The notes under the pieces were generated by a model. The model saw only the letters and a list, made by a program, of their open reading frames with translations. It did no database searches and was not told the DNA's origin. Position numbers and translations under genes: made by a program. Positions 8,346 to 9,725 of a stretch of 9,725 nt of DNA are shown here, in pieces; the first letter of the stretch is position 1, and each line of letters starts with the position of its first letter. This stretch comes from a virus (lineage: Duplodnaviria > Heunggongvirae > Uroviricota > Caudoviricetes). The stretch lies in the IMG/VR virus record IMGVR_UViG_2531839454_000019, one strand, 5' to 3'.

Positions 8346-8870
8346 ATGAAGTTATGGCCTGTGTTGACTGGCATTGCACTCTCTTTCACTCTTATAGCAT
8401 GTAAGGCCCCGACACCACCTAAAGGTGTGCAGCCGATTACAAATTTTGACGCCAACCGCTACCTCGGAAAATGGTATGAAATAGCTCGCCTCGAGAACCG
8501 GTTCGAACGTGGTCTGGAACAGGTCAGCGCTACTTATGGAAAACGGAACGACGGAGGGATTCGTGTACTTAACCGTGGATACGATCCAACGAAAAATAAA
8601 TGGAGCGAGAGCGAAGGTAAAGCATACTTTACTGGAGATACTAAAACTGCAGCATTGAAGGTTTCGTTTTTTGGCCCCTTCTATGGTGGCTATAATGTAA
8701 TCAAACTGGATGATGAGTATAAGTATGCTCTTGTCAGTGGTCCGAACAGAGAATACCTATGGATTCTGGCAAGGACCCCAACTATTCCAGATAAAGTAAA
8801 AGCAGACTATGTGCGAACCGCTCAAAAGTTGGGATTCAATGTCAATGAATTATTATGGGTTAAACAATAA
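8346..8870 (+). CDS. blc: Bacterial lipocalin Blc-like outer-membrane lipoprotein
   Basis: MKLWPVLTGIALSFTLIAC|KAPTPPKGV... with signal peptide and lipobox LIAC. Lipocalin motifs shared with recalled E. coli Blc (NFDANRYLGKWYEIARLENRFERGLE..., SEGKAYFTGD, AALKVSFFGPFYGGYNVI, EYLWILARTPTI). Only clearly coding + strand gene in the cargo region. Confidence 0.85.
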   Translation: MKLWPVLTGIALSFTLIACKAPTPPKGVQPITNFDANRYLGKWYEIARLENRFERGLEQVSATYGKRNDGGIRVLNRGYDPTKNKWSESEGKAYFTGDTKTAALKVSFFGPFYGGYNVIKLDDEYKYALVSGPNREYLWILARTPTIPDKVKADYVRTAQKLGFNVNELLWVKQ

Positions 8871-8898
8871 AATCCCTACCCGAAATAATACTTATTAG

Positions 8899-8925
8899 AA
8901 AAAAACCAGCCTTTGGGGAGGCTGG
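8899..8925 (-). terminator. Rho-independent terminator downstream of Q (tR'-like); also at the 3' end of the convergent lipocalin gene
   Basis: Minus strand: CCAGCCT-CCCCAA-AGGCTGG (7-bp stem; + strand 8906-8925) followed by T7 (A-run 8899-8905 on +). About 100 nt downstream of the Q stop, where lambdoid phages place tR'. Confidence 0.45.
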
Positions 8926-9025
8926 CTAAATCAGGAAACAAGCTGTTATATGATAATAACTACGTTGTGATTCCAACATTTAAAATGTTAGACTAATGAC
9001 AATCAGACAGCAACTTTTCCTTTAA
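8926..9025 (-). promoter_or_regulatory. Putative late promoter (pR'-like) / qut region between Q and the tR'-like terminator
   Basis: Positional inference from lambdoid architecture (Q, then pR'/qut, then tR'). Minus strand has promoter-like hexamers (e.g. TTGTCA ... and TTGGAA ... TATCAT), but none could be assigned confidently. Confidence 0.25.
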
Positions 9026-9403
9026 TTATTTCGAACAATCAGCATCCATCTCCAATCGGAGATCCAACACCATCAGCATACCCTCCACTACGCCCTCAGC
9101 TTTCTGAAGCATCCTGCCAACCCAACAATCAGATCGCCCATGCTTACGTGCAAGCGCCATAAAAGTCATGCCGCCGACATAATAGTCCACCAATAAATCA
9201 TGCAAATCGCTGTTGTTCTTTTTCAGACGGGCCATGCACCCGCAAATGATCATCGCGTCATCGTCACAACATTGTGGGCGAGATTTTACTTTTGAAGGAA
9301 TTAATCCCTTAAAACCGGCGGCAATGGACGACCAGGTCACATCTTCATGATTATTAGCCGCCCACGCTCCCCAACGCTCAAGAACCATCTGAATATCACG
9401 CAT
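9026..9403 (-). CDS. Q: Late-gene antiterminator Q (QuuD/phage-21-type)
   Basis: [88 protein letters not shown]... closely matches recalled K-12 QuuD. ATG 9403 with GGAG 7 nt upstream; the track's longer ORF starts at a TTG (9418). Confidence 0.85.
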
Positions 9404-9427
9404 CAACTTACTCCACAAAACTCAGAC

Positions 9428-9725
9428 TGTTGTGGTTTACTGAATTTGGCCACCTGAACAGAGGTGATATGCTCACCTCAGAACAACACAGGTGCCATAA
9501 TGAAAAAAAGAAATTTCAGCGCAGAGTTTAAACGCGAATCCGCTCAACTGGTCGTTGACCAGAATTACACCGTGGCAGATGCAGCCAGCGCTATGGATGT
9601 CGGCCTTTCCACAATGACGCGATGGGTGAAACAATTACGTGATGAGCGGCAGGGAAAAACACCAAAAGCCTCCCCCATTACCCCGGAACAAATTGAAATC
9701 CGTGAGCTCAGGAAAAAGCTACAAC
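9428..9725 (+). mobile_element. IS3-family insertion sequence (IS911-like), left end and start of orfA; continues beyond window
   Basis: Terminal segment TGTTGTGGTTTACTGAATTTGGCCACCTGAACAGAGGTG begins with TG and matches the recalled IS911 left inverted repeat over its inner ~27 nt (ACTGAATTTGGCCACCTGAACAGAGGTG). It is followed ~70 nt later by an orfA with an IS911 OrfA-like N-terminus. Exact boundary uncertain by about 15 bp. Confidence 0.75.
9500..9725 (+). CDS. insN: IS3-family transposase OrfA (IS911 InsN-like), 3'-truncated by window edge
   Basis: [79 protein letters not shown]-terminus and the start of a leucine-zipper region, near-identical to recalled IS911 OrfA. Confidence 0.85.

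Follow-up and report, generated by a model that had tools for sequence, protein, structure and literature searches.

The closest described relatives of the element discussed here are the insertion sequences of the IS911/ISEc52 group (IS3 family). In IS911, an outward-directed -35 element lies in the right inverted repeat (IRR) and a -10 element in the left inverted repeat (IRL), and hybrid outward promoters are formed at the IRR side (PMC9330008). The mentions of ISEc52 that we found in the literature are in surveys only. Insertion sequences within lambdoid prophages have also been described. For instance, the terminase small-subunit gene nu1 of the O157 Sakai prophage Sp4 is disrupted by an IS insertion (PMC2669165), and IS629 is present in Stx2a phages (PMC4587872). 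As in the O157 Sakai Sp prophages, the locus reported here has an IS within a lambdoid prophage that possibly impairs induction. However, whereas the IS of Sp4 disrupts a gene, the one studied here disrupts none and sits in the untranslated leader of the late antiterminator gene Q. Thus, any effect would be one of transcriptional polarity or disconnection rather than of gene inactivation.

Nearer counterparts are found in complete genomes, where every full-length ISEc52 that we found next to the same prophage module lies at a deletion joint, without a target-site duplication (TSD) and with its IRL toward the late genes. In Ec40743/PM22 (H1/H2; L001 3570-4819), the IS lies within ylcG and its far side adjoins the sequence upstream of ral, with genes for DUF2528, cIII, kil, gam and bet coming next. 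In E5/MS 124-1 (H3/H4; L041 4981-6230), the element is upstream of rusA and its other side adjoins a truncated DUF2528 gene, after which come cIII, kil, gam and bet. In strain 504838 (L030; IS of 1250 bp, minus strand), a copy with a variant TGTT tip sits at window-equivalent position 8318, upstream of ybgA, and adjoins a fragment of int that neighbors a pectinesterase gene; this int fragment occurs on 50 contigs. With three independent cases, loss of the immunity and replication region at an IS looks like a recurrent event. The joints share with our locus the IS, its orientation and the module (Q, lipocalin, YbgA and AraC-type gene), but their breakpoints differ from ours, and in them the far side is visible and the early region is lost.

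The window that we analyzed (positions 1-9725) is the entire draft contig AQCY01000093.1 of assembly GCA_000354335.2 (9725 bp), which extends from a partial terL gene to Q and a further 298 bp of IS. Its DUF1327/ydfR protein (EMV23691.1) occurs on one contig only in the protein collection. The left end lies inside terL, with an open frame running off, and the right end lies inside a multi-copy IS; since both are assembly breaks, they say nothing on the integrity of the prophage. We consider it likely, with a probability of about 0.85, that the window ends in a private ISEc52 copy whose TGTT left end lies 24 nt before Q in the ylcG-Q spacer, with the IRL facing Q and without a recognizable promoter toward Q, and that Q is reliant on transcription from beyond the IS. 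The features on which this reading draws are the following.

9428..9725, plus strand: left 298 bp of an ISEc52 copy (IS911-like, IS3 family), ended by the contig end; 298/298 against full 1250-bp copies.
9428..9463, plus strand: IRL of about 36 bp, with the tip TGTTGTGG in place of TGAAGTGG; from the IRL/IRR alignment in full copies.
9500..9724, plus strand: orfA, codons 1-75 (DNA-binding part of the transposase, HTH_Tnp_1), directed away from Q.
9425..9427, no strand: GAC, the expected left copy of a 3-bp target duplication if this is a simple insertion, as identical IS copies make 3-bp TSDs.
9404..9427, minus strand: retained Q leader of 24 nt, what is left of a ylcG-Q spacer of 85 bp; matches uninterrupted loci at 100% as far as 9427.
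9411-9414, minus strand: Shine-Dalgarno sequence GGAG of Q, read from the sequence.
9026..9403, minus strand: Q, late antiterminator of the QuuD type, 125 aa, intact (Pfam PF06530, E = 2.2e-51).
9025..9054, minus strand: candidate late promoter pR' directly past Q, placed by position and by a consensus scan (TGGAGA-18-AATAAT, 9/12).
8904..8927, minus strand: candidate tR' terminator, which Q would override, placed by position and by a 9-bp G+C-rich hairpin with a T-run.

The 298 bp of IS are identical (298/298) to full 1250-bp copies from H10407 plasmid p948 and strain 504838 (L003/L004), and they match canonical ISEc52 (L001, Ec40743) at 296 of 298 positions and K-12 IS911A at 292 of 298, with two of the six substitutions at the tip. 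The resulting identities (99.3-100% to ISEc52 copies and 98.0% to K-12 IS911A) refer to these 298 bp only. The ISfinder threshold for the same IS is roughly >90-95% nucleotide identity. RefSeq labels the identical copies “IS3-like element ISEc52 family transposase” and flags the ISEc52 CDS as “frameshifted.” The window shares with ISEc52 the IRL, the start of orfA and the HTH_Tnp_1 domain, and it shows the same organization of IRL followed by orfA as IS911, with an IRL identical from position 5 onward when compared with K-12 IS911A (our reference for IS911). The IS end starts with 5'-TG (9428-9429), and the IRL aligns with the IRR in the identical full copies. The orfA start codon at 9500 lies about 70 nt inside the IRL, and the frame matches PF01527 (HTH_Tnp_1; residues 1-74, E = 1.9e-14); in one identical copy (L030), a gene called as HTH_Tnp_1 precedes one called as rve/rve_3. 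In the window copy, the contig ends (at 9725) before the frameshift site, DDE domain, IRR and target duplication are reached. In full copies the right end of ISEc52 reads ...GTTGACCACTTCA (also given as ...CTCGGTGGCCAGTTTTTGTTGACCACTTCA), and the IRR of full variant copies is that of the published IS911 IRR oligonucleotide of the Chandler laboratory (PMC2909936). By every feature that can be checked in 298 bp, then, the element belongs to the IS911/ISEc52 group (IS3 family), as proposed in the sequence-only reading, which had placed an IS911-like element about 25 bp before the Q start (the distance is 24 nt).

That reading had also suggested that the outer 12 or so nucleotides of the inverted repeat differ from those of IS911. 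This is mostly incorrect, and what remains of it is a real but small variant of the tip. Both K-12 IS911A and ISEc52 start with TGAAGTGGTTTACTG and the window copy starts with TGTTGTGGTTTACTG, the difference being confined to IS positions 3-4 (AA to TT, window 9430-9431), so that the canonical TGAA of ISEc52 becomes TGTT. An IS911 IRL of the form TGAAGTGGCAC..., which was also considered, is contradicted by K-12 IS911A. The TGTT tip was found only in five complete genomes (H10407, 504838, ATCC 43896, L3_E36_ETEC and 025542-1), at least three of which are ETEC, and whose copies agree with the window at 298/298 positions. We retrieved six full copies with this tip, from H10407 plasmid p948, the chromosome of 504838 (two copies), a 504838 plasmid, ATCC 43896 and L3_E36_ETEC. 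All are 1250 bp long and 100% identical to each other, and perfect 3-bp TSDs (ATA, AAG, CAG, AGG and TAG) border five of them. Judged from these copies, the TGTT tip is a functional IS end, and the complete identity together with the TSDs suggests a recent active burst of this sub-variant. The ends of the variant copies are asymmetric, with TGTT in the IRL and TGAA in the IRR (L003, L004, L030, L042-L045).

At the left end of the element, homology to uninterrupted prophages and phages stops abruptly. A megablast search of window 9000-9725 against 5,426 complete E. coli genomes gave 100% matches to 9000-9427 in many genomes, every one of them ending at 9427, and isolated phage genomes such as that of IdasGreatGrand likewise match only up to this position. 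The empty site reads ...CCACAAAACTCAGAC followed directly by CAGAACGCC..., and the uninterrupted locus, in which CCACAAAACTCAGAC is followed by CAGAACGCCAATT, continues into ylcG and rusA. Measured against thousands of empty sites, the IS terminus is exactly at 9428, leaving 24 nt (9404-9427) to the Q start codon. The earlier proposal that the left end of the IS, at about 9428, abuts the ribosome-binding region of Q is thus borne out, and the GGAG is kept.

An exact search with the junction 37-mer (9413-9449) gave no match in GTDB representative genomes, IMG/VR or JGI metagenomes, and no contiguous match across the junction was found in the 5,426 complete E. coli genomes or in 50,697 phage records. 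Exact-protein look-ups with the truncated AraC-type gene and essD retrieved relatives, none of which has an IS at the Q-leader site; Q and rrrQ, also used in such look-ups, encode proteins too common to extend the sequence. L035, the nearest relative, shares 99.84% identity with window 1-9427; its site is empty, and upstream of Q it has ylcG, rusA, ybcO and ninE, the series continuing as far as P. Given the absence of the junction from the collections searched and the empty site in this relative, the insertion is, as far as these comparisons reach, private to this draft genome or strain.

The gene next to the insertion belongs to the Phage_antitermQ family (PF06530), as indicated both by a full-length match (118/118 profile positions, E = 2.2e-51) and by the synteny ylcG-Q-...-holin in relatives. 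The minus-strand reading frame opens with an ATG at 9403. The product is identical to WP_001204777.1 (“antiterminator Q family protein”), found at the matching position in L001/L002, and to a protein for which the contig collection lists 24,625 blocks; at the DNA level, Q is 99.6% identical in the isolated Escherichia phage IdasGreatGrand. The downstream candidates pR' and tR' are consensus matches only, and the tR' hairpin also lies just beyond the stop codon of the convergent lipocalin gene. We also considered whether the tip of the IS sequesters the Q ribosome-binding site and rejected this, because the Q translation-initiation region is predicted to fold in the same way whether or not the IS is present (with unremarkable z-scores).

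The orientation of the element bears directly on how Q could be transcribed. The IRL faces Q, which is on the minus strand, and orfAB is transcribed away from it on the plus strand; thus, the IS's own promoter in the IRL is directed away from Q. Consensus scans, which miss weak or non-canonical promoters, gave no sigma-70-like site within 9404-9725 on the strand of Q or, over the whole IS, on either strand. It is also the IRL, and not the IRR with its outward -35 element, that abuts Q. For these reasons we disfavor an IS-associated promoter as the driver of Q, a route that the sequence-only reading had left available. The same reading had named a Q promoter within the remaining 25 bp or so as a finding that would speak against it; the consensus scan gave no such site there, and the 24-nt remnant is too short for a promoter besides the ribosome-binding site. 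Transcription of Q would then rely solely on polymerase that comes from the far side of the IS, and Q, with the Q-dependent late and lysis expression from pR', would need it to traverse 1.25 kb or more of the IS in the antisense direction, as untranslated RNA. We consider it plausible that Q expression is compromised.

How severe the effect would be depends on what lies beyond the contig end, for which two explanations have to be weighed. The window may record a simple recent insertion, with a complete 1250-bp ISEc52, a GAC duplication and an intact ylcG-rusA-nin-P-O and immunity region on the other side; antisense read-through would still make Q, and the prophage would be inducible, perhaps with a delay. 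The right end of the IS would then be followed by GACCAGAACGCCAATTACAAGC, with GAC+CAGAACGCCAATTACAAGC as the flank on the ylcG side. Alternatively, the IS may mark a deletion or rearrangement joint, formed by an IS-mediated adjacent deletion or by recombination between two IS copies. It would then connect the Q leader with a remote stretch of DNA (for example pL-operon genes, int or some other locus), the immunity and replication genes would be gone, and an orphaned Q would belong to a non-inducible remnant of late, lysis and cargo genes. The singleton nature of the event, which occurs in no other genome searched, favors a simple insertion, as do the 99.84% identity of the flanking prophage to a relative with an intact nin region, the intact late genes of the window and the clean 3-bp TSDs that this IS variant normally gives (5/6). 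Against it stand the full-length ISEc52 copies beside this module in complete genomes, all of which lack a TSD and mark deletions. These same three independent joints, with the IRL always toward the late genes, are what supports a joint in the window; however, no precedent shares either flank with it, and the late genes of the window are undecayed except for a frameshifted cargo regulator, which is also found in uninterrupted relatives. In addition, the precedents are older and clonally spread events, and stabilized deletions are therefore over-represented among them (survivorship bias). Overall, we give a deletion or rearrangement joint an even chance, and we hold the simple insertion as a tentative alternative, with a chance slightly below even.

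Transcription across the element also enters this comparison. In classical lambda genetics, N-modified polymerase overrides the polarity of IS insertions. Without N, an untranslated RNA of 1.25 kb should be strongly polar through Rho. A phage that uses N could therefore still express Q across a simple insertion, which would be strongly polar unless N-type antitermination is used. N-type genes (N36 or N_peptide) are present in relatives with this Q (L006, L009, L014), and the antisense strand of the IS has two weak terminator-like matches against 1.5 expected by chance, both of which suit a simple insertion that remains transcribed. On the other hand, the relatives that share the nin region of the window (L005, L012, L029) have an early region of the YdaS/YdaT type with no Pfam N family listed. 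The draft nature of the data could point elsewhere, to a chimera joining the Q region to an IS copy from another place in the genome, as the junction is known from one draft assembly and the contig ends in a multi-copy repeat. The break, however, coincides with the very first base of an IS end whose position is known independently from five TSD-flanked copies elsewhere. A real insertion predicts such a coincidence and a random mis-join would not produce it, which is a strong argument against both a chimeric assembly and a chance match; we therefore regard an artifact as very improbable. The contig probably stops inside the IS because the repeat could not be assembled. De Bruijn assemblers usually extend less far into a repeat than the 298 bp seen here, and thus the ISEc52 copy could itself be interrupted or truncated near the contig end. 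Whether by insertion or by deletion, the private ISEc52 end before Q would leave that gene dependent on distant transcription, and it is plausible by analogy that the prophage is cryptic, as had been proposed earlier, because three independent related loci show ISEc52 as an early-region deletion joint.

The proposal that cargo and lysis genes are retained holds insofar as these genes are present downstream of Q, but the AraC-type cargo gene is frameshifted. In this AraC-family gene (6112-6851, minus strand), a 1-nt deletion near 6726 relative to a 243-aa allele leaves a 195-aa C-terminal ORF. This 195-aa product has 239 indexed blocks in the collection, among them the uninterrupted prophage of 025542-1 (chromosome CP035832). 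A cargo pair at 7194-8870 comprises a YbgA-type protein (2-thiouracil desulfurase and DUF1722 domains) and, encoded on the opposite strand, a Blc-like lipocalin; it sits between the candidate tR' and the lysis genes and accompanies this Q allele in very many E. coli prophages. The prophage is also mosaic, with a junction at about 5708, at the 3' end of the holin gene. Over 5708-9427, the window shares 99.7-99.8% identity with the prophages of 025542-1 and 504838 (L028, L030), which have a different lysozyme cassette (165 aa), and left of about 5708 lies a Qin-type cassette with ydfR, rrrQ, rzpQ, cspI, ymcF, ynfN and gnsB.

The recurrence of ISEc52 beside this module could be taken further. ISEc52 might repeatedly domesticate lambdoid prophages in a stereotyped way, with the IRL toward Q and the late module and with flanking deletions that drop immunity and replication while cargo (lipocalin, YbgA and AraC-type) and lysis genes are kept. 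The window would then show this process at its first step, the IS being lodged in the Q leader, and the asymmetric TGTT/TGAA ends might bias the element to one-ended adjacent deletions. We regard this scenario as speculative and unlikely.

Nothing in the locus is mechanistically new, as lambdoid prophages commonly carry IS insertions and IS-mediated deletions, which are well documented, and it has little importance beyond this strain, the IS copy being identical to ones in published genomes. For annotation, the lesson is that a contig from the short-read era that breaks in a repeat should not be used for claims on prophage integrity. If Q is silenced, this prophage would be a further example of one that has been disarmed while its cargo and lysis genes persist.
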